Below are positions 3,614 through 36,833 of a DNA stretch of 64,000 nucleotides, one piece after another. Made by a program: the position numbers and the translations under genes. Source of the DNA: a virus. How positions within the stretch are numbered: position 1 is the stretch's first letter; every line of letters begins with the position of its first letter. The notes below the pieces were generated by a model. That model saw only the letters and a list, made by a program, of their open reading frames with translations. It did not search any database and had not been told where the DNA came from. The stretch lies in the IMG/VR virus record IMGVR_UViG_3300024274_000264. One strand, given 5' to 3'.

Positions 3614-4641
3614 TGTTTACACTTTTAAAAATAGTACGTCACCCAATAGCAGATAAAATACAAACAATTTGTGACCAGTTGAATCTCGATTCAGATTTAG
3701 AGGTTGAAGATTTTTTAGAAAAAAATAAAAACATTAGCTCAATTTTAAAAAAAATTGAGACATTCGAAAACGCAAATTTCTATTATCAAAAGATCTTTAA
3801 AAGATCTAATTTCATATTAGATAATTTAGAATCATCAGAAGATTATCTGAATCTTGAAAATTTAAAAGATTTGTTAGAAGAATATAAAACTACTGGTGAT
3901 AAGCGAAATTTTCATATAATCGAGTCATTTTTACCAAAAACAGAAATTGCTTCCTATGACAGAATAACTTCTATTACTGGAAGGCAAAAAGTAATAAATG
4001 GTCCACAAATTTTAACTTTAAAAAAGGATGATCGAAAAAAAATTTTTAAAGATAAAAATCTCTACATGATAGACTTTTCGGCGCTAGAACCTTCGCTGCT
4101 TTTTCAAATTTTAGGATATGATGAATTAAACTATCAGGACCTTTATTTTTCAATAAAAACTAAATTAGGATTGAAATTTATAGAAAGAAGTGATATAAAA
4201 TCAGCGGTATTAAAAATTCTTTATGGTTCAAATATTGATCACATCAAAGAGATTAACCACGCTGAAAGTGAATTACTAGAAAATTTTCTTTTAAATGAAA
4301 AGTTTTTAAATTTTAAAAATGAATTATTGAATGCTTTATATGAGCAAGGACAGCTGTACAATCTTTTTGGAAAACCACTACTTTCTAAAGAACAAGCAGT
4401 TGAGGCAAATTTTCAACCTTATATGGTTGTAAATTATTACATTCAAAGTTCTGCCGCAGATTTATCACTTTTATTATTAAGTGATTTTTATAAAGACAAT
4501 ATGGATCATATCAATCCATTATTTGTAATTCATGATGCTTTACTTTTTTATGCTAAACCAAGTTTTAGTGTGGAAAATAATCTAAAATTAAGTTTTGAAA
4601 AATATAATATTTTCGCGAAAATTACTCGCGCAAACGAGTAA
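3613..4641 (+). CDS. short family A DNA polymerase-like protein (polymerase domain only)
   Basis: TGR, motif A DFSALEP, motif B K...LKILYG, NYYIQSSAAD, motif C IHDAL; no exonuclease domains. Confidence 0.75.
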   Translation: MFTLLKIVRHPIADKIQTICDQLNLDSDLEVEDFLEKNKNISSILKKIETFENANFYYQKIFKRSNFILDNLESSEDYLNLENLKDLLEEYKTTGDKRNFHIIESFLPKTEIASYDRITSITGRQKVINGPQILTLKKDDRKKIFKDKNLYMIDFSALEPSLLFQILGYDELNYQDLYFSIKTKLGLKFIERSDIKSAVLKILYGSNIDHIKEINHAESELLENFLLNEKFLNFKNELLNALYEQGQLYNLFGKPLLSKEQAVEANFQPYMVVNYYIQSSAADLSLLLLSDFYKDNMDHINPLFVIHDALLFYAKPSFSVENNLKLSFEKYNIFAKITRANE

Positions 4642-4764
4642 AAAGTATTCGAAAATACTAATTATAGGCACAGTCTCACCAGTCCGACACCAGTCATTAT
4701 TTTCACTTATTGATGACCAAAAATTCGAGGACTAGATTACACAGACACAAGGAAAAAAATAAAA

Positions 4765-5661
4765 ATGGCTCAACCAAAATATCTACAAGCAATCAAAGAT
4801 AAACTAACACCAAAACCACAATACACAAAAAAAGAATTTGTACCCGCTTATCCAACATGGAAACCTGAAATTGGGAAAACGTATAAAGTAAGATTTATAC
4901 AACCAACAGATAATGTTACAGATGAACCTTTCTATGAAATTTTATTTTATAGAAATCTCGAAGCGAATAAACGATTTGTTGCTCCATATCAGTTTGGTTT
5001 ACCTGACTCTGTAAAAGAAGAATATGATGCAATTCGAAGAGATAATTGGGATGTTGCAAAAAACTTAAAAGCAAATGAAACCTATTTTTCTCTTCTTTTA
5101 GATAGAGGAAATGAAGCGGCAGGAATTCAAGTTTTTGAATTTTCAAAAGAAATAAGAGATCAAATCTATAACGCTTTACAATCTGAAGATTATCAAGATA
5201 AAGATGTTTTTGATCCTGTTGATGGATACGACTTTGAAATCAAAGTGTTTCCAAAAACAGACAACTCTGGAAAACCCAAACTTTGGAATGGAAAACAAGT
5301 AAGAGGTTATTCTTTTCAATTGAGAATAAGCCCTTCGCCACTAGCGAAAACGCCAGAAGAAAGAACTAAACTTATAGAATCTGCTCCAAAAATTTTGGAA
5401 ATTCAAAAAGGATTTGTTAAATCTCCTGAAAACTTAAGAAAAGTATTGGATGCATTCTACGAAGCTAAAAACATGGAAGTTAATCCTGCTGAACCTCAAG
5501 CTTCTTCTGAAGTTTTGTCGGAAGGAGTTGTTATGGAAACAGATGATGAAAAAACACAGAAATTTTCTGCTTCAACTTCAGCCACATCAACAAGTGCGGC
5601 AATAGCAAAATTGAATGCACTAAAAGCTAAAGCTGGAATTAAAAAAGACGCATCAGCTTAA
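4765..5661 (+). CDS. single-stranded DNA-binding protein (gp32-like)
   Basis: VRF.P, GIQVFEF, FDPVDGYDF, acidic low-complexity tail; adjacent to recA. Confidence 0.7.
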   Translation: MAQPKYLQAIKDKLTPKPQYTKKEFVPAYPTWKPEIGKTYKVRFIQPTDNVTDEPFYEILFYRNLEANKRFVAPYQFGLPDSVKEEYDAIRRDNWDVAKNLKANETYFSLLLDRGNEAAGIQVFEFSKEIRDQIYNALQSEDYQDKDVFDPVDGYDFEIKVFPKTDNSGKPKLWNGKQVRGYSFQLRISPSPLAKTPEERTKLIESAPKILEIQKGFVKSPENLRKVLDAFYEAKNMEVNPAEPQASSEVLSEGVVMETDDEKTQKFSASTSATSTSAAIAKLNALKAKAGIKKDASA

Positions 5662-5766: not shown

Positions 5767-6552
5767 ATGGCAAACATTAAAAAAGGCAACAAACAAGAAG
5801 TATCGCTTACTCCCAAAACCACAAATTTACTAGAGCCTCAAGAGCAAGCCTCTTCCAAAAGAATGGCAATTATTTCTGGAATCACTAAAGAAATAAACAA
5901 AACCCGCGGAGAAAAGATTGCTTATAATCTTAAAACAGATGACGATGCACCAACTAATGTAAAAAATTGGTTCTCAACATCAGCAATAAAATTAGACTAT
6001 ATTATTTCAAATAAAAGAAATGGAGGAATTCCAGAAGGAAGAATAATTGAAGTTTTTGGAGAACCTTCTTCTGGGAAATCAACTCTTGCGCAAACAATAT
6101 GCGCGCAGGCTCAAAAAAATGGGGCAATAGCAGTTTATATTGACTCTGAAAATGCAACATCTGTGGAGAATCTTGCGATGCTTGGAGTCAATACCGACGA
6201 ATTAATTTTCGTCCAAGAACAATGTATCGAAGATACATTTCAATTAATAGAACAAATAATCACCTCTGTTAAAAATCAAGATAACAATCTGCCAGTAATC
6301 ATCGTGTGGGACTCAGTAGCGGCTTCAGTTTCTAGAACCGAGTTAGAGGCAACCTACGAACAACAACAAATTGGAATCAAAGCTAGAGCTCTTAGCAAAG
6401 GTATTATGAAAGTTAATCAGATCTTGAAAGATAAAAGAGTCACACTCTTACTTGTTAATCAGACAAGACAAAAAATTGGTATCTTACATGGAGATGCTTG
6501 TGTTTCACCAGACACAAAAATTAAAATAAGAACAAAAATGTCAAATGGATGA
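5767..6552 (+). CDS. recA: RecA/UvsX N-terminal extein plus 17-aa N-intein
   Basis: GGIPEGRIIEVFGEPSSGKST, YIDSE, WDSVAA, LLVNQ.R.KIG; ends GDA|CVSPDTKIKIRTKMSNG. Confidence 0.92.
   Translation: MANIKKGNKQEVSLTPKTTNLLEPQEQASSKRMAIISGITKEINKTRGEKIAYNLKTDDDAPTNVKNWFSTSAIKLDYIISNKRNGGIPEGRIIEVFGEPSSGKSTLAQTICAQAQKNGAIAVYIDSENATSVENLAMLGVNTDELIFVQEQCIEDTFQLIEQIITSVKNQDNNLPVIIVWDSVAASVSRTELEATYEQQQIGIKARALSKGIMKVNQILKDKRVTLLLVNQTRQKIGILHGDACVSPDTKIKIRTKMSNG
6499..6549 (+). mobile_element. atypically short split-intein N fragment (RecA)
   Basis: CVSPDTKIKIR is intein block A, followed by a stop after 17 aa. Confidence 0.8.
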
Positions 6553-8431
6553 AAAAGATTATTTTAATTTCAAATTTACAATTAAGAAAAATAAACCAAT
6601 TTTTGAAATTAAACTAAAAGAAGAGTTTAAAATTTGTAAGCAAAATTATAAAGATGGGGAAATGCCGATTTCGACATCTTCTATAAGATATTTTTGTTTA
6701 TATTTCGAAAATTTACAAATAGCTGAAAAACTTTACAAGTTTTATAAATATTTTTTTAATAAAAAAAATGCCTATAAATGGTTTTTAAACAATAGATTAA
6801 TTTCAACTGAAGAGATTTCTTTTTGTGTTGAGTATTTTAAAAAAATTGAAGAGAAAATGATTTTTAATCATAAAAAAGTTATAAATTCAGAAGAATACAG
6901 AAGCACTCTAAAAAAGTCTTATAACCATGAACTTCAGTCTAAAATTAAGAAAAAATTATATCAAAATGAAGAATATAAATTAAAAGTTTATAAGGCTACT
7001 CAAAATCCTGAAGTGAAAAAAAGAAGAGTAGAATCTTATAAAAAATGGTTAACTAATGGAGGTATAGAACAATTAAAAATTGCAGCAAATAAACCAGAAA
7101 GAATAAAAAAAATTAGATATTGGTCAAAATTTTATGCGAATAAACTTCAAAGAGATCTTAATTTCCCAAAAAAATACGAACTAAATTCGTGTAAAATGAC
7201 TAAAATTGAATTTATTGTTGGAAATATTTTAAATGATTTAAAAATTAATTGGGAATATGAATCTCCATTATTGTTAGATAATAAATGGTTTTATCCTGAT
7301 TTTTCTTTAGGAAATAATTTAATAATTGAATGTTATGGAGATTATTGGCACGCAAATCCTGATAATACAAAAAGGGTAGATAAAGAAGAAGTTTGGGAAA
7401 AAGATAAAACAAGAATTGACACACTTGTAACTGATGGCTATAAAGTTCTGACACTTTGGGAATCTGAAATACTAAAACTAAAAAAAAGAGAAATACAAGA
7501 AAAAATAGAAAGATTTATAAAAATGGATATAGAAAATAACGTTTACAAAGAAGAAGAAGTTACTTTAAAAGATTTATTTGAAAGGTATGGTATTTCATCA
7601 TTTGATGAAGTCGGTATGTTGTCATTGAATGATGATATTGAAATTGAAAGTTACGATATTGTTCAAAATAAAACTGTATGGAGTAAATTAACAGATCTAG
7701 TCGTAAAACCTTCTGTTGATTCTTTTTATAGTCTAGGTTCTTTAAAAGGAACCGCAAATCATAAAGTCTGGTTTAACAATGGATGGATAGAATTAAAAGA
7801 TCATCCTGACGCTGTTAAAGTTGACGGCAAAATTGATGTTCTAGATCTTTCAGTAGAAAATACAAATTGTTACTTAGCTGAAGGTCAAATAAATCATAAT
7901 ACTACTACTCCTGGTGGTATGGCAATTCCATTTGCTGCGTCAGTTAGATTACGAGTTTATACCCCACAAAAAATCAAAGAGCTTGTCGAAAAACAAGAAA
8001 TTATAAAAGGGATTCAAGTTAGAGTAGCAACAGTTAAGAATAAAGTCGCAAGACCTTACAGACAAGCAGAGCTGCAAATTCTTTATGATAAAGGTATAAA
8101 TGATTACGAAATTCTTTTTGATGACCTCAGAGCTTTTTGTGAAACCCCAAAATATAAAGAAAATAGAGAAAAATGTGCAATAAATGGTATCTGTGCTAGT
8201 ATTTCTGGTGCAGGAGCTTGGAAAAAAATTGAATTAATTGATTGTTTAACGGGAGAAGTAAAAGGAGATAAAAGTTTTTATAAAGTAGATTTCGTTACAG
8301 TTTTTAACGATCCAAAATATAAAGAGTATATTTTAATGTTGTGTGACGGTGCCTTTATTCTAAGAGATAATGAGAAAGATGAAATTTCTGTAACAACTGG
8401 CATTCCAACTGATGAGCACAGCCTGGATTAA
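6545..8431 (+). CDS. recA: Vsr-like endonuclease fused to C-intein and RecA C-terminal extein
   Basis: YPDF..IIECYGDYWHANP..WESE, then intein GTANH...DLSVENTNCYLAEGQINHN|TTTPGGMAIPFAASVRL..KNKVARP. Confidence 0.9.
   Translation: MDEKDYFNFKFTIKKNKPIFEIKLKEEFKICKQNYKDGEMPISTSSIRYFCLYFENLQIAEKLYKFYKYFFNKKNAYKWFLNNRLISTEEISFCVEYFKKIEEKMIFNHKKVINSEEYRSTLKKSYNHELQSKIKKKLYQNEEYKLKVYKATQNPEVKKRRVESYKKWLTNGGIEQLKIAANKPERIKKIRYWSKFYANKLQRDLNFPKKYELNSCKMTKIEFIVGNILNDLKINWEYESPLLLDNKWFYPDFSLGNNLIIECYGDYWHANPDNTKRVDKEEVWEKDKTRIDTLVTDGYKVLTLWESEILKLKKREIQEKIERFIKMDIENNVYKEEEVTLKDLFERYGISSFDEVGMLSLNDDIEIESYDIVQNKTVWSKLTDLVVKPSVDSFYSLGSLKGTANHKVWFNNGWIELKDHPDAVKVDGKIDVLDLSVENTNCYLAEGQINHNTTTPGGMAIPFAASVRLRVYTPQKIKELVEKQEIIKGIQVRVATVKNKVARPYRQAELQILYDKGINDYEILFDDLRAFCETPKYKENREKCAINGICASISGAGAWKKIELIDCLTGEVKGDKSFYKVDFVTVFNDPKYKEYILMLCDGAFILRDNEKDEISVTTGIPTDEHSLD
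7523..7900 (+). mobile_element. large split-intein C fragment (RecA)
   Basis: Contains block B (GTANHKV), block F (VLDLSV) and terminal HN followed by Thr +1; begins at in-frame ATG 7523. Confidence 0.8.
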
Positions 8432-15059: not shown

Positions 15060-16910
15060 ATGAGAGAGCCTAAAAAGTATGTGAATCTACATGCACATTC
15101 AAACGGAAGTATTGGCGATGCCATCGGACTTCCCCAGGATCATTTTGATTTTGCCCAAAAAAATGAACTTGGAGCTCACGCAATTACAGATCATGGAAAC
15201 ATGAACACTTTTTCTCACTCTTACAAATACTACGAGGGTCTTAAAAAAGAAGGTAAAGAATTCAAAATTCTTTATGGAATTGAGTCTTATTTTATTCCAT
15301 CCATATCGGAGTGGTCTTCTTTAAAAGAAGAAACTTCAAAAAGAAAAGAAATAGAAAAGCAAAATAAAAAAACAAATAAAGCAAAACCAAAAAAATCAAC
15401 AGATGAGTTTATTATTTTTGATGAAATTGAAGAAAAGCGAAAAGCAGAATTTATAGCAGAAGTTGAAAACTACGAACTTTTAAATAAAGAAGTTGCGCTT
15501 TTGAAAGACGCTGAAGGAAATGTTGAAACAACTGTTGTTGAAAATGAAGAAGAAACTAAATCCAACAAAGTTAGAGATCCTCTTCGTTCAAGAAGTCATT
15601 TAGTATTGCTTGCAAAAAACACAGCAGGTTTACATAGTTTGTTTAAACTAACTTCTCTTTCTTATAAAGAAGGATTTTATTTTTTTCCACGTATGGATTT
15701 CGACTTAATAAAGCAAAATGCTAATGGTAATATAATAGCAAGCAGCGCTTGTTTAGGTGGCGAACCAAATAAAATACTCATAAAACATTTTTTAGATCTT
15801 AACCTAAATGAAGAAGATTACAAGAGTGATGTCGATAAACTAAAAACTTACAAATTCGATCAGATTCAATCTGAACTAAAACTACTTGCCGAGCAATTTA
15901 TATACGTTTTAGGAGGCAATAAAGATAATTTTTTTCTTGAAATACAGTTTAACAAAGTTCCATATCAACATTTGCTGAATTATCATTTAATTGAATTATC
16001 AAAAAGAACTGGAATAAAAGTTATTGCGACCGCAGATTGCCACTATCCAAATCCCGAACACTGGAAAGAAAGAATTATTTATAAAACTCTCGCAAGAATG
16101 ACTGTCGATAAACTTAAAGAAATTGATCCAAATACAATTCCACAAAAAATTGAAGAGTTGGAACATGAGTTATATCCAAAGAATGCCACTCAAATGTGGA
16201 ACGCTTATAAAAACTATTGTGTTAAAGATTATCCTGAAATTTATACCGAAGAATATCATGAAATAGTTTGCGACGCAATTGAACGAACGCATGAAATTGC
16301 TTTTGAAGCAATTGACAAGAAAATAGAATTCGATAAAACTCCAAAACTTCCAAGTCTGAATAAGTTAATATCAGAAAATAAAATTAAAGATTTTAAATCC
16401 GATGGTTTGAATGAAGATGAAATAAGTTTTAACGAGCTCGTCGATTTGGTTATGTCTGGTCTAGAATCAAAAAAGAAAATTGAAGATACAAAATATGTTG
16501 ACCGCGCTCTTGAAGAACTTGACGTTATCAAACATTTAAAACTTGAAAAGTATTTTTTGACTTGTGCCCAAAGTCTTAATTTGATTGGTAAAAAAATGTT
16601 ATTAGGAGCTGGCAGAGGTTGTTTCTTACCAGGAACAAAAATACATATTCCTTCTTCAAAAAGAAAATTGAATATTGAAGAGTTTTCTTCTTCAAAAGAA
16701 GAATGGGTTTATACCCACGATGGCTCAATTCAAAAAGTTTTAAAATGTTGGGATCACGATCTTCAAGACGAAGAGATAGTAGAACTCGAATTTGATGATG
16801 GTACGATAATTTCTTGCACAAAAGATCATAAATTTCTTACGAAAAATCGTGGTTGGGTCGCGGCATCTGACTTAAAAGATGATGATGAATTCGAAAAAGT
16901 ATGTTTTTAA
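15060..16910 (+). CDS. dnaE: DNA polymerase III alpha, piece 1 of 4 (PHP domain; 520-aa extein plus IntN1)
   Basis: LHAHS, AITDHG, HLVLLAKN, ATADCHY, ends GAGRG|CFLPGT... Confidence 0.95.
   Translation: MREPKKYVNLHAHSNGSIGDAIGLPQDHFDFAQKNELGAHAITDHGNMNTFSHSYKYYEGLKKEGKEFKILYGIESYFIPSISEWSSLKEETSKRKEIEKQNKKTNKAKPKKSTDEFIIFDEIEEKRKAEFIAEVENYELLNKEVALLKDAEGNVETTVVENEEETKSNKVRDPLRSRSHLVLLAKNTAGLHSLFKLTSLSYKEGFYFFPRMDFDLIKQNANGNIIASSACLGGEPNKILIKHFLDLNLNEEDYKSDVDKLKTYKFDQIQSELKLLAEQFIYVLGGNKDNFFLEIQFNKVPYQHLLNYHLIELSKRTGIKVIATADCHYPNPEHWKERIIYKTLARMTVDKLKEIDPNTIPQKIEELEHELYPKNATQMWNAYKNYCVKDYPEIYTEEYHEIVCDAIERTHEIAFEAIDKKIEFDKTPKLPSLNKLISENKIKDFKSDGLNEDEISFNELVDLVMSGLESKKKIEDTKYVDRALEELDVIKHLKLEKYFLTCAQSLNLIGKKMLLGAGRGCFLPGTKIHIPSSKRKLNIEEFSSSKEEWVYTHDGSIQKVLKCWDHDLQDEEIVELEFDDGTIISCTKDHKFLTKNRGWVAASDLKDDDEFEKVCF
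16620..16907 (+). mobile_element. split intein N fragment 1 (96 aa)
   Basis: CFLPGTKI block A, CTKDHKFLT block B, GWV.A.DLK.DD then stop. Confidence 0.92.
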
Positions 16911-16932: not shown

Positions 16933-17280
16933 TTGGGACCAAAAATGATATTCTACCAAATTTTTTGCTCAAACTGTGGAATGTTGTTTTTACCTTCTCA
17001 AGATATTAAATTTGCCGATCGATCGGCAAATGTTTTATGTTGTTCGAAGAATTGTTTAAAAATTCACAATTATAAATATTCTGCTTGGACAACACGTCAA
17101 AAAATAGATTTTAAATCCGCAAGAGATGTTATTACAACTACCATAAAAATAGTTGGTAATATTCCTGAAATTAACGAACTCTTAAAATTATCTTCGTCTC
17201 TAGTAATCGATGAATATTCCAATCAACAATTATTGAAAGAAATAATTGAAATGATAAAAGACAATATAATCCTACTGTAG
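16933..17280 (+). CDS. hypothetical Cys-rich (zinc-finger-like) protein
   Basis: CSNC...CCSKNC. Confidence 0.5.
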   Translation: MGPKMIFYQIFCSNCGMLFLPSQDIKFADRSANVLCCSKNCLKIHNYKYSAWTTRQKIDFKSARDVITTTIKIVGNIPEINELLKLSSSLVIDEYSNQQLLKEIIEMIKDNIILL

Positions 17281-27898: not shown

Positions 27899-28447
27899 AT
27901 GAAATCTTTGAATAGAGATGACTTCAGAAACCAAGTTTTTAAGCGAGATAAATTTTCTTGTGTTGCATGCGGCGAAAAAGCAATATTTGATTCAAGCCAA
28001 GAACCTACAAATTTAGATGCTCACCATATTATTGAAAGGAAACTTTGGGGAGAAAGTCAGGGGTATTTTGAAGACAATGGCGCAACCGTTTGCGAACCTT
28101 GTCATATAAAAGCAGAGGAAACATTAATTTCTTGTAATGAATTAAGGCAACTTTGTGGCATCAAAACGACAATATTACCAGAGCAATATTATAAAGATCA
28201 AGAAATTGACAAATGGGGTAACTTTGTTTTACCAAATGGAATTAGATTAAGAGGAGAGCTTTTTTATGAAGAATCTGTACAGAAAGTTTTAAAACCTGTA
28301 ATTCATTTATTTGAAGAATATGTTAAATACCCAAGAACATATCATGTTCCTTGGAGTCCTGGAGCTAAAGATAAAGAAGAGCGAACTTCTCCAATAATGG
28401 ATCATTTTTTGAATAGGGAAATTGTGGTTCTAGAAAAATTGTTATAA
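27899..28447 (+). pseudogene. HNH-RNA ligase fusion, N-terminal fragment (stops inside motif I)
   Basis: RD...C..C, DAHHI, C..CH (HNH), then KYPRTYHVPWSPG...VVLEKLL* where EKxDG is expected. Confidence 0.75.
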
Positions 28448-28481: not shown

Positions 28482-29504
28482 ATGTCCAAAAAATTAACAG
28501 ATGAAGAAAAAGTTCAAAAAATCATAAAAAATAAAAATATTAACGTCAAAGAAGTCATTAATTGTTATAGAGATTTGGAATACAGTTTACCCAAATTAAA
28601 GAAACAGTTTAATTTGGGTTTTAAAGAAAGTGTTTTGATATTAAAACAGAATAATATAAAGATTAGATCAATTTCAGAAAGTAGAAAAACAAATACGTTT
28701 AAAAAAGAAAATAAGGAAAATCTATTAGAAAAATATGGTGTGTCGAATGTAAGTAGTCTTGATTCTGTTAAAGAAAAAAAGAGAAAAACTTCTTTAAAAA
28801 ATTACGGAGTAGATAATATTTGGAAAACAAAAGATTATGGAATTAAAGCACAAGCTTCTAAAGAAAAGAAATATGGAATAAAAGCTATTCCTAACTTATA
28901 CGGAAAAGCAAATTATTTCGGATGGAAAAGTTCTACAGAAGAAGAAAAAAAGAAAAGGCTTCAAAATTTATGGTCAGAAAGTATTTTATCTTGGAATTCT
29001 TTAACAGAAGAACAAAAAACTAAAATAATTCAAAAACGTTCGAGAAAAATTGTTTCTTGTTATAATTCTTCGCTTGAACGTAAAATAAAAAATTCTTTAC
29101 AGAAATTAAATATACTATATAGCGAACAATTTTGGATAAACCGAAAAAGTTATGATTTTCATATTAAGATTTTTAATGTAAATTATGTATTAGAAATTAA
29201 TGGAGATTATTGGCATGCTAATCCTCTTTACTATAAGGAAAATGATTTTATTAACTATCCATTAGGTTTAATTAAAGTTAAAGAAATTTGGGATAAAGAT
29301 TTAATAAAAAAACAAAATGCGGAAAAATATGGTTATAAAACATTATATATTTGGGAAAGCGAATTGAAAAATAAATCTGAAATTGAAATTGAAAATCTAA
29401 TAAAAGAAAAACTTAAATTAAATAAAATCTCGTACAGTGCTCAAAATGAAAAATGTGAAAATTTTAAACATAAAAAAATAAAATTCATATCAAAAAAAAC
29501 ATAA
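28482..29504 (+). mobile_element. free-standing Vsr-like (putative homing) endonuclease
   Basis: EKYGV repeats, YDF, LEINGDYWHANP, IWESE. Confidence 0.8.
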
Positions 29505-29522: not shown

Positions 29523-30023
29523 TTGTTTCTGGTTATAAGCAATTACATACATGCACGTTCGCTAGATAGTTTAGAAAATCATCCATCAAGAACAAGAATT
29601 AAAGCTTTTCATTCCACAATAAAAAATGATTTACCAAAGGGTTGGAGATTTTGTTTCGAAAATGTTTTCGCAAAGCATAGTATTCATTATAAAAGTTTAA
29701 AAGACTACCATTACCTTCTTTCCGTTTGGAATGAATACAACACTTGTCTTTCTTGGGATGAAACTAAAGAATGGGCAGACTTGTTAGAAGTACCAACACC
29801 AGAAATTCTTTATAGAGGAATTTATAACGAAAAAATTTTGAAAGATCTTTATCGGCCCATTTCTAATAATGGAGATGAGTGTGAAGGTTATGTTATTCGA
29901 CCTACAGATTCCTTTCCTTATAGAGATTTTAGAAGATTTAATTTAAAGTTCGTAAGAGAAAATCATGTTCAAACTTCTGAGCATTGGAAGCAATCTAAAA
30001 TAATAGAGAATGAAATAAAGTGA
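29523..30023 (+). pseudogene. RNA ligase C-terminal fragment
   Basis: YIHARSLD, ENVFAKHSIHY, CLSWDET, EGYVIR, KFVRENHVQT..HW. Confidence 0.75.
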
Positions 30024-31642: not shown

Positions 31643-32034
31643 AAATGGAAAATGATATAAAACAAGTTCTTGTGTGGAGAAAAGACTTAAATGTTAGAAA
31701 AGGTAAAATAGCTGCCCAACTTGCCCACGCAAGTATAAAATGGCTAACTCAAAGGATTAGAAACAGTCCTGAAAAAAAAGCTATTGATCTTTTAGATGAA
31801 GAAGAAATTTCCTGGATCGATGGCAATTTTAAAAAAGTTGCCGTTTATGTCGAAACAGAAAAAGAATTGATAGAATTGTATCAAGCAGCAAAAGAGACGG
31901 GGTTGACCGTAAATTTAATAACCGACGCGGGATTAACTGAGTTTCATGGACAGCCAACTAAAACATGCTTAGCTATAGGACCACACTCTAGCGAGAAGAT
32001 TGATCCGCTGACTAGAGAGCTAAAACTGTTATGA
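31633..32034 (+). CDS. pth2: peptidyl-tRNA hydrolase, Pth2 type
   Basis: KQVLV.RKDL...KGKIAAQLAHAS, DAGLTEF, TCLAIGP, LKLL. Confidence 0.92.
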   Translation: MDVKMENDIKQVLVWRKDLNVRKGKIAAQLAHASIKWLTQRIRNSPEKKAIDLLDEEEISWIDGNFKKVAVYVETEKELIELYQAAKETGLTVNLITDAGLTEFHGQPTKTCLAIGPHSSEKIDPLTRELKLL

Positions 32035-32489
32035 AATATAATATAAAACTCATTTGTGAAAAACTCAATGTGACGCACCCACAACATGATAAAATAATGG
32101 AACGTGTGTCCGAACTGAAAGCAGATGTTGAAAGTTTATTTAAAGATCAGGAATATCTGGATTTCCACTTAAAAAACAGAAACGAAGAAGCGACAGAAAA
32201 ATCAGCTTTTATCTTTTTAAGACATTTGCCAAAGTATACACTCTCATTAAGTTTTCAAAACCATGAGTTTTACATTGCTGAATATGGAGAATATTTGTCT
32301 GAAACAAAGATTGAAATAATGATAGCTAATGTTTTTAACATTAAGGAATATATCTTTAAAAAAATTCCAAATTATTTGAAATATAGAACTGGTGCATTTT
32401 CTCTTGACCTTATAGATTATGAATTTCCGATAACAGCTTTGCCAAAAATTCATATCAAAATAAATGAACAATGGAATGGCCTCTGGTAA
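32031..32489 (+). CDS. hypothetical protein
   Basis: Coupled ORF; C-terminal LPKIHI resembles the paralogue-family tail. Confidence 0.5.
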   Translation: MKYNIKLICEKLNVTHPQHDKIMERVSELKADVESLFKDQEYLDFHLKNRNEEATEKSAFIFLRHLPKYTLSLSFQNHEFYIAEYGEYLSETKIEIMIANVFNIKEYIFKKIPNYLKYRTGAFSLDLIDYEFPITALPKIHIKINEQWNGLW

Positions 32490-33874
32490 ACATAATGAAA
32501 CTAAAATCAAAAACATATAGAAAATATACTGGAAAGGTTTATGACCTTTCTGTTGAGAATAAAAGTTCGTATAACGTCGAGGGTTTTCCTGTGCATAATT
32601 CTGGTGCGGGATCTTTAGTTTGTTACCTTTTAGGAATTACCCAGGTTGATCCAATTAAACATGGACTTTTGTTTGAAAGGTTTTTAAGTAAAAAGAAAGC
32701 ATGTCTCGGAGAAGATTCTTGGGTCTTGACCTATACGGGTCCTAAACAATTAAAAAATATTAAAATCGGAGACCGAATTAAAACTCATACAGGAAAATAT
32801 TTTCCTACCGTGGCAATTGATCTAACAAAAGATCGTACAGACTGGTATGAAATTACGTATGGTTATTGGCTAAATCATACCAGTCTTGGTTTGAAAGGTT
32901 TTCATAGACCATTTTATAGCGTTGGAAAATTGATAGCTAGTTCAAATCATAAATTTATTACAGCTCAACAATTTAATTGTCCACATATACAAAAAATTCC
33001 TTTAGATGTAAAATATAAAGATGTATCTGTTGAATTTATAAAATCAGTAGTAGATAATAGTTTTACAAAAACTCAGCCAAGATTTTATGGGAATGGATCT
33101 GATAATAAAACTTGGGAAATTTTTTCTATCGAAAAAGGTAAAGTCCCATTAACTTTAATTGATATTAAATTGGAAGCCGACCATACATTTTGGGTTTCAG
33201 ATAAAAAAGATGGCGTGTATGTTTTATCCCACAATTCCTTACCTGACATTGATAGCGATTGTGCAGACAGAGAAGAGGCAATTAAAATTCTTATCGAGCA
33301 TTTTGGAGAAGAATGCGTATTACCTGTTTCAAACTATAACCAACTTCAACTTAAATCCTTAATTAAAGATTTGGCTAGGTTATACCAAATTCCATTTGAA
33401 GAAATCAATCCAATTACTCAAAAAATTGAAAAAGAAACACTTGACGAAGATAAGAAACAAGATGGTTTCGATCGAGGTGTTTGGTTTCTTTCTTATGAAA
33501 GTGCCGAGAAAAACTCTCCAACTTTTAACAAACTATTGGAAGATTATCCACAACTTGAAGCGAGCATAAAAGTATTATTCAAACAAATAAAATCATGTTT
33601 TACGGAGGACACATTACTGTTGACTAACAGCGGTTGGAAAAAATACTCTGAAATTACAGAGCAAGACAAGATAGCATTTATTGACAACGTTGGAGAAATT
33701 CAATATAGTTCAGACTTTTTTAAAGTCGAAAATGGAGAAAAAGAAGTTTACAAAATTGAAACTTTAGATGGAAAGGTTTTGGAACTAACTGAAGACCATT
33801 TAGTTCAAACCGATAAAGGTTGGAAACAGGTAAAAGATTTAACAAATGAGGATTCTCTAATCGGATGGATATAA
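32471..33874 (+). CDS. dnaE: DNA polymerase III alpha, piece 2 of 4 (IntC1-extein-cis intein-extein-IntN2; likely start ATG 32495)
   Basis: VHN|SGAGSLVCYLLGIT.VDP...FERFL; catalytic SLPDIDSD; ends KS|CFTED... Confidence 0.95.
   Translation: MEWPLVNIMKLKSKTYRKYTGKVYDLSVENKSSYNVEGFPVHNSGAGSLVCYLLGITQVDPIKHGLLFERFLSKKKACLGEDSWVLTYTGPKQLKNIKIGDRIKTHTGKYFPTVAIDLTKDRTDWYEITYGYWLNHTSLGLKGFHRPFYSVGKLIASSNHKFITAQQFNCPHIQKIPLDVKYKDVSVEFIKSVVDNSFTKTQPRFYGNGSDNKTWEIFSIEKGKVPLTLIDIKLEADHTFWVSDKKDGVYVLSHNSLPDIDSDCADREEAIKILIEHFGEECVLPVSNYNQLQLKSLIKDLARLYQIPFEEINPITQKIEKETLDEDKKQDGFDRGVWFLSYESAEKNSPTFNKLLEDYPQLEASIKVLFKQIKSCFTEDTLLLTNSGWKKYSEITEQDKIAFIDNVGEIQYSSDFFKVENGEKEVYKIETLDGKVLELTEDHLVQTDKGWKQVKDLTNEDSLIGWI
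32495..32599 (+). mobile_element. split intein C fragment 1 (35 aa)
   Basis: KVYDLSVE...YNVEGFPVHN followed by Ser +1. Confidence 0.92.
32702..33235 (+). mobile_element. contiguous mini-intein (178 aa, no endonuclease) in dnaE
   Basis: CLGEDSWV..., SSNHKF block B, DIKLEADHTFW...LSHN|S. Confidence 0.9.
33596..33871 (+). mobile_element. split intein N fragment 2 (92 aa)
   Basis: CFTEDTLLLT.SGWK, LTEDHLV, GWKQVKDL then stop. Confidence 0.92.
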
Positions 33875-34320
33875 AGCAATTTTTTTCTGAAGACTATGAA
33901 AAAGTAACTTTAGAAAAGTCTCAAGCTGTTTTTGAATTGTTTTATAGTTTGGTTGATCAGTTAAAAACTAGAAAAATTATACATTCGGAAAAATTGATAT
34001 TGCTTGAAGAATTAGATGTATTTGCTATTAGTTGTCAAGATATGTCTATTGAATTTTTACGCAAATGTAAGTTCTTATCCGAAAAAGAGATTCAAGAGAT
34101 GTTTGTTACTATTTATACAATTAGCGATGAAAAAGTTCTTACCCCACACGATACTTGGATTTGGATTAATAATATCCAACTAACAAATAAATTTAAACCA
34201 CAATTTTCTTTAGGTATAAATTATGATGGAATTGAACTCTATTCTTATCTTTTGGAAATAGAAAATCAAAAAATAATAGGTCTCAAGTTGGAGCGAGAAT
34301 TCGGCGATGAAACAGAATAA
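33865..34320 (+). CDS. hypothetical protein inserted between dnaE pieces 2 and 3
   Basis: Overlaps both flanking dnaE ORFs; no nuclease motif recognised. Confidence 0.6.
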   Translation: MDIKQFFSEDYEKVTLEKSQAVFELFYSLVDQLKTRKIIHSEKLILLEELDVFAISCQDMSIEFLRKCKFLSEKEIQEMFVTIYTISDEKVLTPHDTWIWINNIQLTNKFKPQFSLGINYDGIELYSYLLEIENQKIIGLKLEREFGDETE

Positions 34321-34441
34321 AATAATCTCAATTCAAAAAATTGGTAAGAAACCTGTCTTTGATATTCACCACAATATTCCAACAGGTGCTTTTATTGACG
34401 ATCAGCCTAATATAGTGACCGAAGCTGGATTAATTTCAAAT
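34307..34441 (+). mobile_element. split intein C fragment 2 (45 aa, ends SN)
   Basis: KIISIQKIGKKPVFDI...GLISN followed by Cys +1. Confidence 0.88.
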
Positions 34442-35533
34442 TGCGGTCGCCACGCTGGCGGCGTTGTCCTCACTGACTCGCCGATCGAAAACCAGAATAT
34501 GCCTCTGATTATTGGCGGCAAGGGTGAGAAAAGATCGCTCCAAACACCTTGGACAGAAGGTGTAAACTTCAGAATGCTAGAACATTTTGGATTTCTTAAG
34601 TTTGACTTTTTGGCACTTGGAACACTCCGTATTTTTGAAAACACGGTAAGAAAAATATTAAAAAAACAAACAGGAAGACAAGAATCCGAAATACCATTTG
34701 AAGAAGTTCAAAAATGGTTTAATGATCATTTGTCACCAGACAATAATCCAATGGATGATCTTAAAGTTTATGAAAACGTGTTTTGGAATGGAAATTTTAT
34801 TTCGATTTTCCAGTTCGTAAAACCAAACACACAAGATTTTATGAAAAGGATGAAGCCTAGATCGGTCAAAGATATTGCGATTGCGACTTCAATACACCGC
34901 CCAGGCCCACTAGGATTAAAAGTAGATAGAGACTTTTTAGCGAATAGAGCAAACCCAGATTTGATTAAATATGAACATCCATTCTTAAAAGAAGTTTTAG
35001 AACCAACAAGCGGACTCTTAATTTTTCAAGAACAGTTACAGTTAATTTATCATCATTTATGTGGAGTTCCTCTCGACGAAACAGATTCCGTTCGTAAAGC
35101 ATTTACAAAGAAAGAAATCAACAACAAGGAAAAAGCGGCAAAAGAACGTGAGAAGTTAAAAGCTGAGTTTGTAGAAAAAACAAAAACCTTTGCAGGTCTT
35201 GAAGAACAAAAGGCATCAAAGTTTTTTGATAAAATGGAAAAATTGGTTGCGTATTCGTTTAACCAATGTTTGCATGGAGATTCACTTGTAGAAACTCAAA
35301 ACGGATTTAAGAAAATTAAAGAGGTTATACCAAACCAAGATTTAGTCAATAGTGTCAATGGATTTGTAAAAGTAAAAAATAAGTTTGAAAATGGTGTGAA
35401 AAATTTGGTTAAAATTAAAACGAAGTCTGGTAAAGAATTAGTCTGTACGTTAGATCATAAAATTCAAACACCTAATGGCATGAAAACTGTTAAAGAAATA
35501 ATAGAGCAAAAGCTTCAAATTATAGTAAAATAA
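34307..35533 (+). CDS. dnaE: DNA polymerase III alpha, piece 3 of 4 (IntC2-extein-IntN3)
   Basis: ISN|CGRHAGGVV, KFDFLAL, IFQF, RPGP, IFQEQ, AYSFNQ|CLHGD. Confidence 0.95.
   Translation: MKQNKIISIQKIGKKPVFDIHHNIPTGAFIDDQPNIVTEAGLISNCGRHAGGVVLTDSPIENQNMPLIIGGKGEKRSLQTPWTEGVNFRMLEHFGFLKFDFLALGTLRIFENTVRKILKKQTGRQESEIPFEEVQKWFNDHLSPDNNPMDDLKVYENVFWNGNFISIFQFVKPNTQDFMKRMKPRSVKDIAIATSIHRPGPLGLKVDRDFLANRANPDLIKYEHPFLKEVLEPTSGLLIFQEQLQLIYHHLCGVPLDETDSVRKAFTKKEINNKEKAAKEREKLKAEFVEKTKTFAGLEEQKASKFFDKMEKLVAYSFNQCLHGDSLVETQNGFKKIKEVIPNQDLVNSVNGFVKVKNKFENGVKNLVKIKTKSGKELVCTLDHKIQTPNGMKTVKEIIEQKLQIIVK
35267..35530 (+). mobile_element. split intein N fragment 3 (88 aa, basic)
   Basis: CLHGDSLVET.NG, CTLDHKI block B, then stop. 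Confidence 0.92.
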
Positions 35534-35553
35534 TTGTATCTGGTTTTAGTCAA

Positions 35554-35691
35554 ATGCAAAAATGTATGATCTGTAATCAAGAATTTAAGGTTATAAGATG
35601 GAAAATATTACGAATTTGGGAAAGCGAGATTAATTCTGATTTTGATTCGGTTCTCAAAAAAATAGAAGCTTTTGTAAAGGAAAAAAAATAA
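35554..35691 (+). pseudogene. 45-codon remnant of a Vsr-like endonuclease between dnaE pieces 3 and 4
   Basis: MQKCMICNQEFKVIRWKILRIWESEI...; WESE tail matches the endonucleases at 6545 and 28482; TAATG overlap with piece 4. Confidence 0.7.
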
Positions 35692-35801
35692 TGCTAGACG
35701 AGATCGATTCTGTTGAGTTTTATGGTATTGAAGAAACTTATGATTTGGAAGTGGATCATGAAGACCATACTTTTTATGCTAATGATATTTCTGTTTCTAA
35801 T
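35691..35801 (+). mobile_element. split intein C fragment 3 (37 aa, strongly acidic, ends SN)
   Basis: MLDEIDSVEFYGIEETYDLEVDHEDHTFYANDISVSN followed by Ser +1. Confidence 0.92.
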
Positions 35802-36833
35802 AGCCACGCAATTTCTTATTCAATAGCTACTTTTCAATGCAGCTATCTTTTAACATATCATCCAGATGAATGGATAACAGCTTGTTTAGATTATGCCGCT
35901 CTTGAAAAGGGTAAAGTTGTTGGTCAAGAAGATCCCAAAGCTGTTGCAATGAGAGAGGCACAAAAACTTGGCTATAAATTCTCAAAACCAGATATTAACT
36001 TCTCAAGTGCGGGATATGAAATGCATCCATTTAAAGAAAAAACAATAATTCCAGGATTGACAACAATTGATGGAATTGGAGAAGCAGCGCTCGAAGAAAT
36101 TAACAGAAATAAACCTTATAAAGATATAAAAGACTTATTAATAAAAGAAGATGGTTCTTGGAAACATTCTAAATTTAATCGTAAAGGATTAACAAATCTT
36201 ATTTGCTTAGAGGCCCTCGATAGTTTAAATCTTGTTTCGCCAACTGGTGAATTATCAAATTACAAACAAGCGTTTAATGTTATTGTCGAAAATTTTGATT
36301 TATTAAAGAAAACTTCAGCAAAGAAGAAAAATAATAACATTCAACCAATTTTAGATGAACTAATAAAAAAAGAACAAGAATTAAAAACAGAAGATTGGTC
36401 AAGAGCAGAAAAAACTAAATATTGGCTCGAACTTGCAGGTAGCGCAGACTTAAGTTTAATTCTTGATCCAAAATATTTTGAAGCAATAAAAGAGATGAAT
36501 CTTATAAGCGTTGATGAGATTAGAGAAATCGATTTTCTTGAAGAAGGAGAAAAGAAAAAGATCACAGAACAAGTTTGGTTTATTTTAAGAAAAGCAATAT
36601 TAAAAACAACAAAAACAGGAAAAATTTACGCCGAACTCTCTGTAATTGGAGAAAAGTTTTCAGACTTAACAGTAAAAGTTTGGGACATAAGTCCAACAGA
36701 AAACTTCGAAGCGTACCCAGTGTACGAGGTTTATTGCGGATCAATTACAAAAGACAAATATGGACTATCAACCAAACTAGATAAAATTGCTTCTTTGTCA
36801 GAAATTTATGATTATCTTTTTTCTGGCAATTGA
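35691..36833 (+). CDS. dnaE: DNA polymerase III alpha, piece 4 of 4 (IntC3 plus C-terminal extein)
   Basis: TYDLEV...FYANDISVSN|SHAISYS, PDINFS, GL..IDGIG (HhH), C-terminal OB-like region. Confidence 0.93.
   Translation: MLDEIDSVEFYGIEETYDLEVDHEDHTFYANDISVSNSHAISYSIATFQCSYLLTYHPDEWITACLDYAALEKGKVVGQEDPKAVAMREAQKLGYKFSKPDINFSSAGYEMHPFKEKTIIPGLTTIDGIGEAALEEINRNKPYKDIKDLLIKEDGSWKHSKFNRKGLTNLICLEALDSLNLVSPTGELSNYKQAFNVIVENFDLLKKTSAKKKNNNIQPILDELIKKEQELKTEDWSRAEKTKYWLELAGSADLSLILDPKYFEAIKEMNLISVDEIREIDFLEEGEKKKITEQVWFILRKAILKTTKTGKIYAELSVIGEKFSDLTVKVWDISPTENFEAYPVYEVYCGSITKDKYGLSTKLDKIASLSEIYDYLFSGN

Follow-up and report, generated by a model that had tools for sequence, protein, structure and literature searches.

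Genes broken by an invading endonuclease have been described as fractured genes, in which Vsr-like endonucleases lie between the halves of split inteins, with DnaE among the eight hosts (Dassa et al. 2009, PMC2677866). The model proposed for their evolution includes the loss of the endonuclease (step III), in-frame fusion (IIIa), invasion of a site without an intein (Ia) and dislocation of the pieces (IV) (PMC2677866). More generally, the homing cycle runs from invasion and fixation to the decay of the endonuclease and its loss (PMC3229294). A structural reference for the nucleases concerned here is I-Bth0305I, a group I intron-encoded enzyme with NUMOD/HTH modules (PMC3239194; PDB 3R3P).

The locus studied here belongs to a window of 64,000 nucleotides taken from a virus record of 390,884 bp; this record, which has terminal repeats and a G+C content of 33%, corresponds to a jumbo phage. 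The locus resembles the fractured genes of 2009 in several respects: the host is a phage replication gene (DnaE), the N piece with its intein N half, what is left of the endonuclease and the C piece with its intein C half lie on one strand, and the 3' end of the endonuclease overlaps the downstream start. Contrary to those genes, the endonuclease is half-lost here, as a 45-codon in-frame remnant is left in the window and a full-length allele is known from a sibling, whereas the 2009 study had only a locus from which the endonuclease gene is gone (gp41-7). Four states of the 2009 model are found in this one genome. The locus also resembles the homing cycle, in that a selfish endonuclease that has become dispensable upon fixation is eroded by deletion and in that both an empty allele (L001) and an active-looking one (P0003) occur in related phages. 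Yet, contrary to that cycle, the element of a fractured gene would not be lost cleanly, because its 3' end provides the start signals of the downstream half. In all likelihood, the 45-codon open reading frame is the dead remnant of a free-standing homing-endonuclease gene that formerly stood whole between the halves of the split DnaE intein and was reduced by one 723-bp deletion.

The split DnaE gene and the frame between pieces 3 and 4

The DnaE polymerase of the window is encoded in four pieces. Piece 1 (15060..16910), which lies 15.6 kb away from the others, ends in the N half of an intein. In piece 2 (32471..33874), an intein C half comes first and an intein N half last, and between them a contiguous mini-intein is set between two stretches of extein. 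Piece 3 (34307..35533, plus strand) carries at its C terminus an 88-aa intein N half (35267..35533, plus strand) with Cys1 at 35267 and a T-x-x-H block (T-L-D-H). Piece 4 (35691..36833, plus strand) begins with a 37-aa intein C half (35691..35801, plus strand), which ends in S-N (Asn at 35801) and is followed by Ser+1. Residues D18, E20, H26, S36, N37, S38 and H39 of piece 4 are invariant in an alignment of 44 sequences (that of the window and 43 relatives), and at least 62 clusters of piece-4 proteins begin with this intein C half. The joined exteins of pieces 3 and 4 (...YSFNQ/SHAISYS...) agree with the contiguous sequence of the close relative L001, whose 3/4 junction contains no intein (...SYSFNMSHAISYS...). 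Pieces 3 and 4 are split in the manner of a fractured gene, as two ORFs on the same strand, one ending with an intein N half and the other starting with an intein C half. A blastn comparison of the DnaE region with GenBank phages gave no match.

Other parts of the DnaE region contain additional open reading frames. Two ORFs of ~150 aa without any family match lie just 5' of the intein C halves of pieces 2 and 3 (window 32031-32489 and 33865-34320), in the slot expected for an endonuclease gene; they are kept in G001, the record to which L001 belongs (L001:1613-2095 and 4629-5048). In G001, the intein that is contiguous in piece 2 of the window (32702..33235) is itself fractured (L001:2099-4638). 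The ORF that interrupts it encodes 311 aa, is Cys-rich (CxxCxxxF repeats) and weakly matches Phage_endo_I, and another contiguous intein is found a few residues downstream of the fractured one. A 115-aa ORF with a CxxC motif directly after piece 1 of the window (16933..17280) was considered as a nuclease remnant and rejected: its CxxC...CCSxxC pattern recalls the Cys repeats of the L001 nuclease, but the similarity is not significant (BLASTP E=0.5) and Pfam returned nothing.

The spacer between pieces 3 and 4 measures 157 nt and contains a single ORF (hereafter, the mini-ORF; 35554..35691, plus strand, 45 codons). An initial annotation had described it as an unannotated frame that joins a CxxC start to a WKILRIWESEI tail and overlaps piece 4 at TAATG, a description that proved accurate. 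The protein starts with M-Q-K-C-M-I-C, its tail includes W-K-I-L-R-I-W-E-S-E-I, and its TAA stop (35689-35691) has base 35691 in common with the ATG of piece 4. The same annotation held that the tail matches the C-termini of the two nucleases encoded from positions 6545 and 28482, and this is borne out by BLASTP (E=0.003 to 6545..8431 and E=0.001 to 28482..29504). There are also weak Pfam matches to the extreme profile ends of MTES_1575 and DUF559. A nuclease-domain HMM, built from relatives only and including neither sequences of this genome nor sibling proteins, was run over all 8,014 open frames of at least 25 aa in the 390-kb genome. It matched the two full nucleases and the mini-ORF (E=1.9e-7, 30.3 bits), and none besides; a loose WExE regular expression finds four places genome-wide, three of which are the two nucleases and the mini-ORF. 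Judging from these comparisons, the resemblance of the tail to Vsr-like nucleases is real and non-random. The exact 45-aa product is encoded on eight contigs (JGI and Logan), so it is not the artefact of one assembly. Diverged alleles of similar length were sought among 5.8 billion protein clusters, where only the mini-ORF itself was found.

The surroundings of the mini-ORF can be folded into a stem (CAAAAGCTTC / GAAGCTTTTG) that brackets the remnant, but this structure, obtained from the RNA of 35500-35730, is not significant (z=-1.86; 8/200 shuffles as good). The remnant is bracketed by an 11-nt inverted repeat around two HindIII-like AAGCTT sites (window 35506-35516 and 35665-35675), for which this non-significant stem is predicted.

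The parent protein and the internal deletion

Used as a query against longer proteins of the protein collection, the mini-ORF has one match, the 286-aa protein P0003 (E=1.3e-17). Residues 1-14 are the same in both proteins, with 17/19 identities over residues 1-19 (BLASTP E=1e-10), and residues 16-45 of the mini-ORF correspond to residues 257-286 of P0003 with 29/30 identities (BLASTP E=5e-18), the sole change being Ile/Val. At the protein level, the mini-ORF is P0003 minus 241 residues (723 bp), and the view of the initial annotation that it is an internally deleted Vsr-like nuclease gene is confirmed by this full form in a sibling phage.

The boundaries of the deletion can be read from the two proteins. 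The N-terminal segment of P0003 goes on with I-S-W-K-H-L and the C-terminal segment is entered through N-G-W-K-I-L, while the mini-ORF reads I-R-W-K-I-L; a Trp-Lys pair is in frame at both deletion ends of P0003, and the junction lies at or just before W-K. Since Trp is encoded by TGG and Lys by AAR, at least TGGAA must have been repeated in the parent DNA, and a deletion mediated by microhomology may be proposed from the protein sequences. The residue at the junction, Arg (codon 15, AGA, 35596-35598, plus strand), is neither the Ser nor the Gly of P0003, which requires a break within the codon or a later change; AGA could be a chimera of a Ser codon (AGY) and a Gly codon (GGA), or the result of a point change. 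The 5' remnant (35554..35598, plus strand) consists of the start codon and the CxxC beta-hairpin of a zinc finger, both His ligands of which are deleted. The 3' remnant (35599..35691, plus strand) comprises TGG AAA (W-K), the part of the nuclease domain that forms its final beta-strand and its two C-terminal helices, and the stop codon.

The full-length protein matches the Pfam families DUF559 (E=2e-8, 34.5 bits for a cut-off of 20.6), MTES_1575 (E=6e-7) and, over residues 4-50, ROS_MUCR (E=4.5e-5), with a score of 23.9 bits that is just below the 25.4 cut-off; the zinc-finger ligands are C4, C7, H19 and H23. A profile made of P0003 and its relatives matches Vsr (1cw0, 1.4e-16), the catalytic domain of I-Bth0305I (3r3p, 5.5e-9) and the DUF559 structure 3hrl. 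In the AlphaFold model of P0003 (mean pLDDT 74.5, both end domains 81-95), residues 1-23 fold as a beta-beta-alpha finger and residues ~177-286 as a nuclease domain, with E258-263, H264-269 and H271-285 as its C-terminal elements. A Foldseek search with this model places 3r3p first (target TM-score 0.84, probability 1.00), followed by 3hrl and Vsr. In the locus L124, the stretch homologous to the linker matches NUMOD3 at 2.2e-8. Sequence and predicted structure together indicate that P0003 belongs to the homing endonucleases of the EDxHD type, in the sense of PMC3239194, and that its front part is a zinc finger. It has in common with I-Bth0305I the nuclease fold, the conserved E, D and H in E-x-D-G-D-F-W-H and an N-terminal modular DNA-binding region, but it starts with a zinc finger of the Ros/MucR type and would lie between intein halves instead of in a group I intron.

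The 241 lost residues include the finger helix with its two His ligands, the NUMOD-like linker, and strands 1-3 and the long helix of the nuclease. Every catalytic residue is located within residues 214-250 of P0003, that is, in the deleted part; as none of E, D, H and D is left in the mini-ORF, contrary to I-Bth0305I, the 45-aa product cannot be a nuclease. Similarly, the CxxC is all that remains of the Ros/MucR C2H2 ligands (CxxC and two His), and of the Vsr-like C-terminal fold that P0003 displays, the mini-ORF keeps only the last strand and the helices. By its residues, the mini-ORF would be classified as a relic of the EDxHD family and not as a functional member.

P0003 is on record from a single contig of 35,465 bp. 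P0004 is a 380-aa piece 4, intein C half included, with 97% identity to that of the window; its one recorded source is a Logan contig, which is also of 35,465 bp. As both proteins come from a 35,465-bp contig, we infer that P0003 adjoins pieces 3 and 4, at the 3/4 junction of a sibling phage. In the IMG/VR and metagenome scans, no close full-length relatives of P0003 were found, local identities being at most 57%. Since the sibling keeps the full gene and the flanks are nearly identical, the deletion should be young; the sequences at hand, which include no diverged allele, indicate that it is recent and lineage-specific.

These observations can be accommodated in the following scenario. A 286-codon parent gene would have stood between the split-intein halves of DnaE in the fractured gene arrangement, its product combining an N-terminal C2H2 zinc finger of the Ros/MucR type with a DNA-binding linker that resembles NUMOD and, at the C terminus, a Vsr-like nuclease (EDxHD). 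One deletion of 723 bp, with its junction at or just before the TGG AAA pair that is in frame at both ends of the deleted stretch, would have taken away the finger histidines, the linker and every catalytic residue. Fifteen 5' codons would thereby have been fused in frame to thirty 3' codons, giving a product unable to cut DNA. This event would belong to the decay phase of the homing cycle, the element being already fixed in the lineage. The 3' end would be hard to lose, as a Shine-Dalgarno site is embedded in its last codons and the piece-4 ATG begins on the last base of its stop, the translation start of the downstream half being supplied by the invading element.

The 3/4 junction in related phages and the survival of the 3' end

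The profile of the piece-4 proteins retrieved 80 IMG/VR loci. In most of them pieces 3 and 4 are 0.8-1.2 kb apart and the gap is occupied by one plus-strand ORF of 280-440 aa. Relatives with a full nuclease at this junction, the search for which the initial annotation had suggested, do exist: L070:3117-3992 is an orthologue of P0003 (phmmer 3.9e-86) that shares its M-x-K-C-x-I-C start, and further relatives of P0003 are found at the junction in L073, L111 and L124. ROS_MUCR is present in the gap ORFs of L061, L067, L080 and L105, accompanied by DUF559 in L061 and L080. In other loci the site is a contiguous mini-intein (e.g. L055, L075, L120 and L122), a split whose gap is short (L053-L131, eight distinct loci) or a split in which the gap ORF is fused to piece 3 (L102, L106 and L130). 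Between the intein halves of pieces 3 and 4 in the window there is only the 45-codon remnant, while the whole gene is present in the sibling (P0003) and in the L070-type loci. In L102, L106 and L130, the piece-3 ORF extends ~500 bp beyond the intein N half and ends on the start of piece 4, an N-side fusion that is the mirror image of the RecA fusion discussed below.

The last codons of the mini-ORF (K-E) contain a Shine-Dalgarno-like AAGGA (35677..35681, plus strand), 9 nt before the ATG of piece 4. Such motifs precede 37% of the long ORFs of this genome as against 11% of random positions, and none was found at the mini-ORF's own start. Of 51 related loci, 32 show an overlap of 1-67 nt between the end of the endonuclease gene and the start of piece 4, in agreement with the 6-69 bp reported for fractured genes (PMC2677866). 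The proteins of one endonuclease subfamily end with G-[IV]-[YH]-x-I-G-x-x-Y, a tail encoded by codons that include TATAAAATAGGAGA. A six-frame translation of 1.37 million residues contains this tail motif 26 times, 17 of them within 120 nt 5' of piece 4. It is found in 12 of the 51 loci with a full gene. Among the 10 census rows with a short gap, where the window itself and the near-identical pair L090 and L091 are counted, 5 have kept it after the rest of the nuclease was gone. Other phages from which the nuclease has disappeared retain just its last ~30 nt and no translatable mini-ORF; in L101 the gap is reduced to 23 nt and no separate ORF is left.

A conserved TATAAAATAGGAGA-like stretch (G-I-Y-K-I-G-x-A-Y) is also observed directly 5' of piece 4 in many phages, whether or not they have a nuclease gene; it lies ~10-90 nt upstream of base 4001 in L079, L090/L091, L101, L103, L107, L109, L119, L080 and L098. 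It resembles a T4-type late promoter (TATAAATA) followed by a Shine-Dalgarno site.

Several explanations may be considered for a frame that remains open. One possibility, raised by the initial annotation, is that the mini-ORF is kept by selection for translational coupling, ribosomes ending at TAATG and restarting on piece 4, in which case the whole frame would be needed. In favour of this, the frame is unbroken and its last base is also the first of the piece-4 ATG, the stop/start overlap of the endonuclease recurs in 32/51 related loci, and the deletion allele is on eight contigs against one for the full allele. Nevertheless, an in-frame outcome already follows if the break occurred at or beside two W-K codon pairs that are themselves in frame, and the lack of a diverged allele means that there was no time for selection to show. 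In addition, no Shine-Dalgarno-like motif precedes the start of the mini-ORF while a properly spaced AAGGA precedes that of piece 4, and other lineages that lose the nuclease keep the tail without a start codon or a separate ORF, as the 23-nt gap of L101 illustrates. Selection for coupling thus appears unlikely as the reason for the open frame.

It seems still more doubtful, indeed quite improbable, that the small protein was recruited to a new role, for instance as a DNA-binding or intein-associated factor. The ORF is intact in an expressed operon-like array and its CxxC and amphipathic C-terminal helix are kept, but half a zinc finger joined to one strand and the helices of a nuclease core is unlikely to fold, no homologue of comparable size was found among the 5.8 billion protein clusters, and the flanks hardly differ from the parent, so that no adaptive change is seen. 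As for a chance ORF or an assembly artefact, in which a repeat collapsed between two TGGAAA sites, small ORFs are numerous in short AT-rich genomes and the deletion does end in a short repeat. Yet this explanation is hardly credible given that the mini-ORF is, aside from the two nucleases, the only match of the HMM in the genome (E=1.9e-7), that it has two collinear near-identical matches to P0003 and that the identical product is encoded on eight contigs from two independent data sources.

For a dead remnant of the endonuclease gene, the best explanation of why the 3' end survives again and again is that the downstream half takes its start signals from it, in line with the proposal of 2009 (PMC2677866). 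The ribosome binding site and start codon of piece 4 within the retained 3' end would suffice to account for it, and the comparison of the loci suggests that a translated mini-ORF is not generally required. More tentatively, the 3' end of the endonuclease might be viewed as an 'addiction' module that provides the downstream ribosome binding site and start, and in some lineages a late-promoter-like TATAAAATA, and that survives as a fossil; in the present phage, the mini-ORF might also couple the translation of piece 4 to piece 3.

The RecA and ligase fractures and the evolution of the nucleases

Two more genes of the window are interrupted by nucleases of this type. The N piece of RecA (5767..6552, plus strand) ends with 17 aa of intein (Cys at 6499) and overlaps by 8 nt a fused ORF (6545..8431, plus strand) that encodes a Vsr-like nuclease (residues 1-326, GDYWH at 7337), most of the intein (to Asn at 7900) and the C part of RecA. 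In G001 the locus consists of three ORFs, the 334-aa nuclease having its own stop and the C piece starting 17 nt earlier and in another frame. Compared with G001, small indels in the window have joined the nuclease frame to Met327 (7523), formerly the start codon of the C piece. The fused state recognised by the initial annotation is supported by these sequences as real and derived. The split of the RecA intein is atypical (6499-6552 and 7523-7900), with 17 residues (block A) on the N piece and block B onward on the C piece; this short N half resembles the 'Terminase' split of Dassa et al. (2009).

The nuclease P0002 (28482..29504, plus strand, 340 aa) interrupts an HNH-RNA ligase gene (27899..28447 and 29523..30023). 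In G001 the ligase is uninterrupted, with 354 aa, and reads ...V-V-L-E-K-L-D-G-E-N..., while in the window the first part stops after E-K-L, followed by the nuclease and by a C part that begins before I-H-A-R-S and lacks the D-G of motif I (EKL/DG). The insert is flanked by a 10-nt repeat, AAAAATTGTT. A 10-codon ORF (29506..) has the appearance of a decayed duplicate of the E-I-V-V-L-E-K-L codons found upstream. No intein was found at the ligase break, and since Rfam gave no match on the whole window, no group I intron explains it either. From its sequence, the break is an intein-less fracture and probably an inactivating one. The initial annotation was right that this nuclease is free-standing, but its reading of the ligase as a split-intein state did not stand: there is no intein, motif I is destroyed and the G001 gene is intact.

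The three nucleases had also been assigned to one family. The nuclease-domain tree unites the ligase and RecA nucleases in one clade (95/95), and P0003 and the L070 protein make up a pair (80/75) that falls outside it. P0003 is 48% identical to the L070 protein and 21-23% identical to the two other nucleases of the window; it groups with the DnaE-junction nucleases of other phages, and its N-terminal zinc finger is a different one. The tree and the identities point to one superfamily with two lineages, so the assignment holds at the superfamily level and fails below it, where the RecA/ligase clade excludes P0003. The tree also rules out that the three are recent paralogues. The more general proposal that the nuclease family invades inteins and splits them was already published in 2009 (PMC2677866).

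All of the present interpretation except the remnant itself is found in Dassa et al. (2009) (PMC2677866). What is new is a clean intermediate between the 'fractured' and 'endonuclease lost' states, together with an undeleted sibling and a census of all the states at the site. It provides a dated snapshot of a free-standing homing endonuclease vanishing from a split intein, with the full gene and its one-step deletion product in one lineage. Among related phages, the DnaE site is either empty or occupied by a contiguous mini-intein, or else it is fractured, with the full nuclease in some and its tail alone in others. These real intermediates support the gene-breaking model of 2009, and they suggest that clean loss is hard because the downstream half depends on the 3' end of the element. 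The widespread 88 + 37-aa DnaE split intein and its relatives are candidate protein-ligation tools, and P0003 and the L070 protein are candidates for tests of target specificity among EDxHD nucleases.
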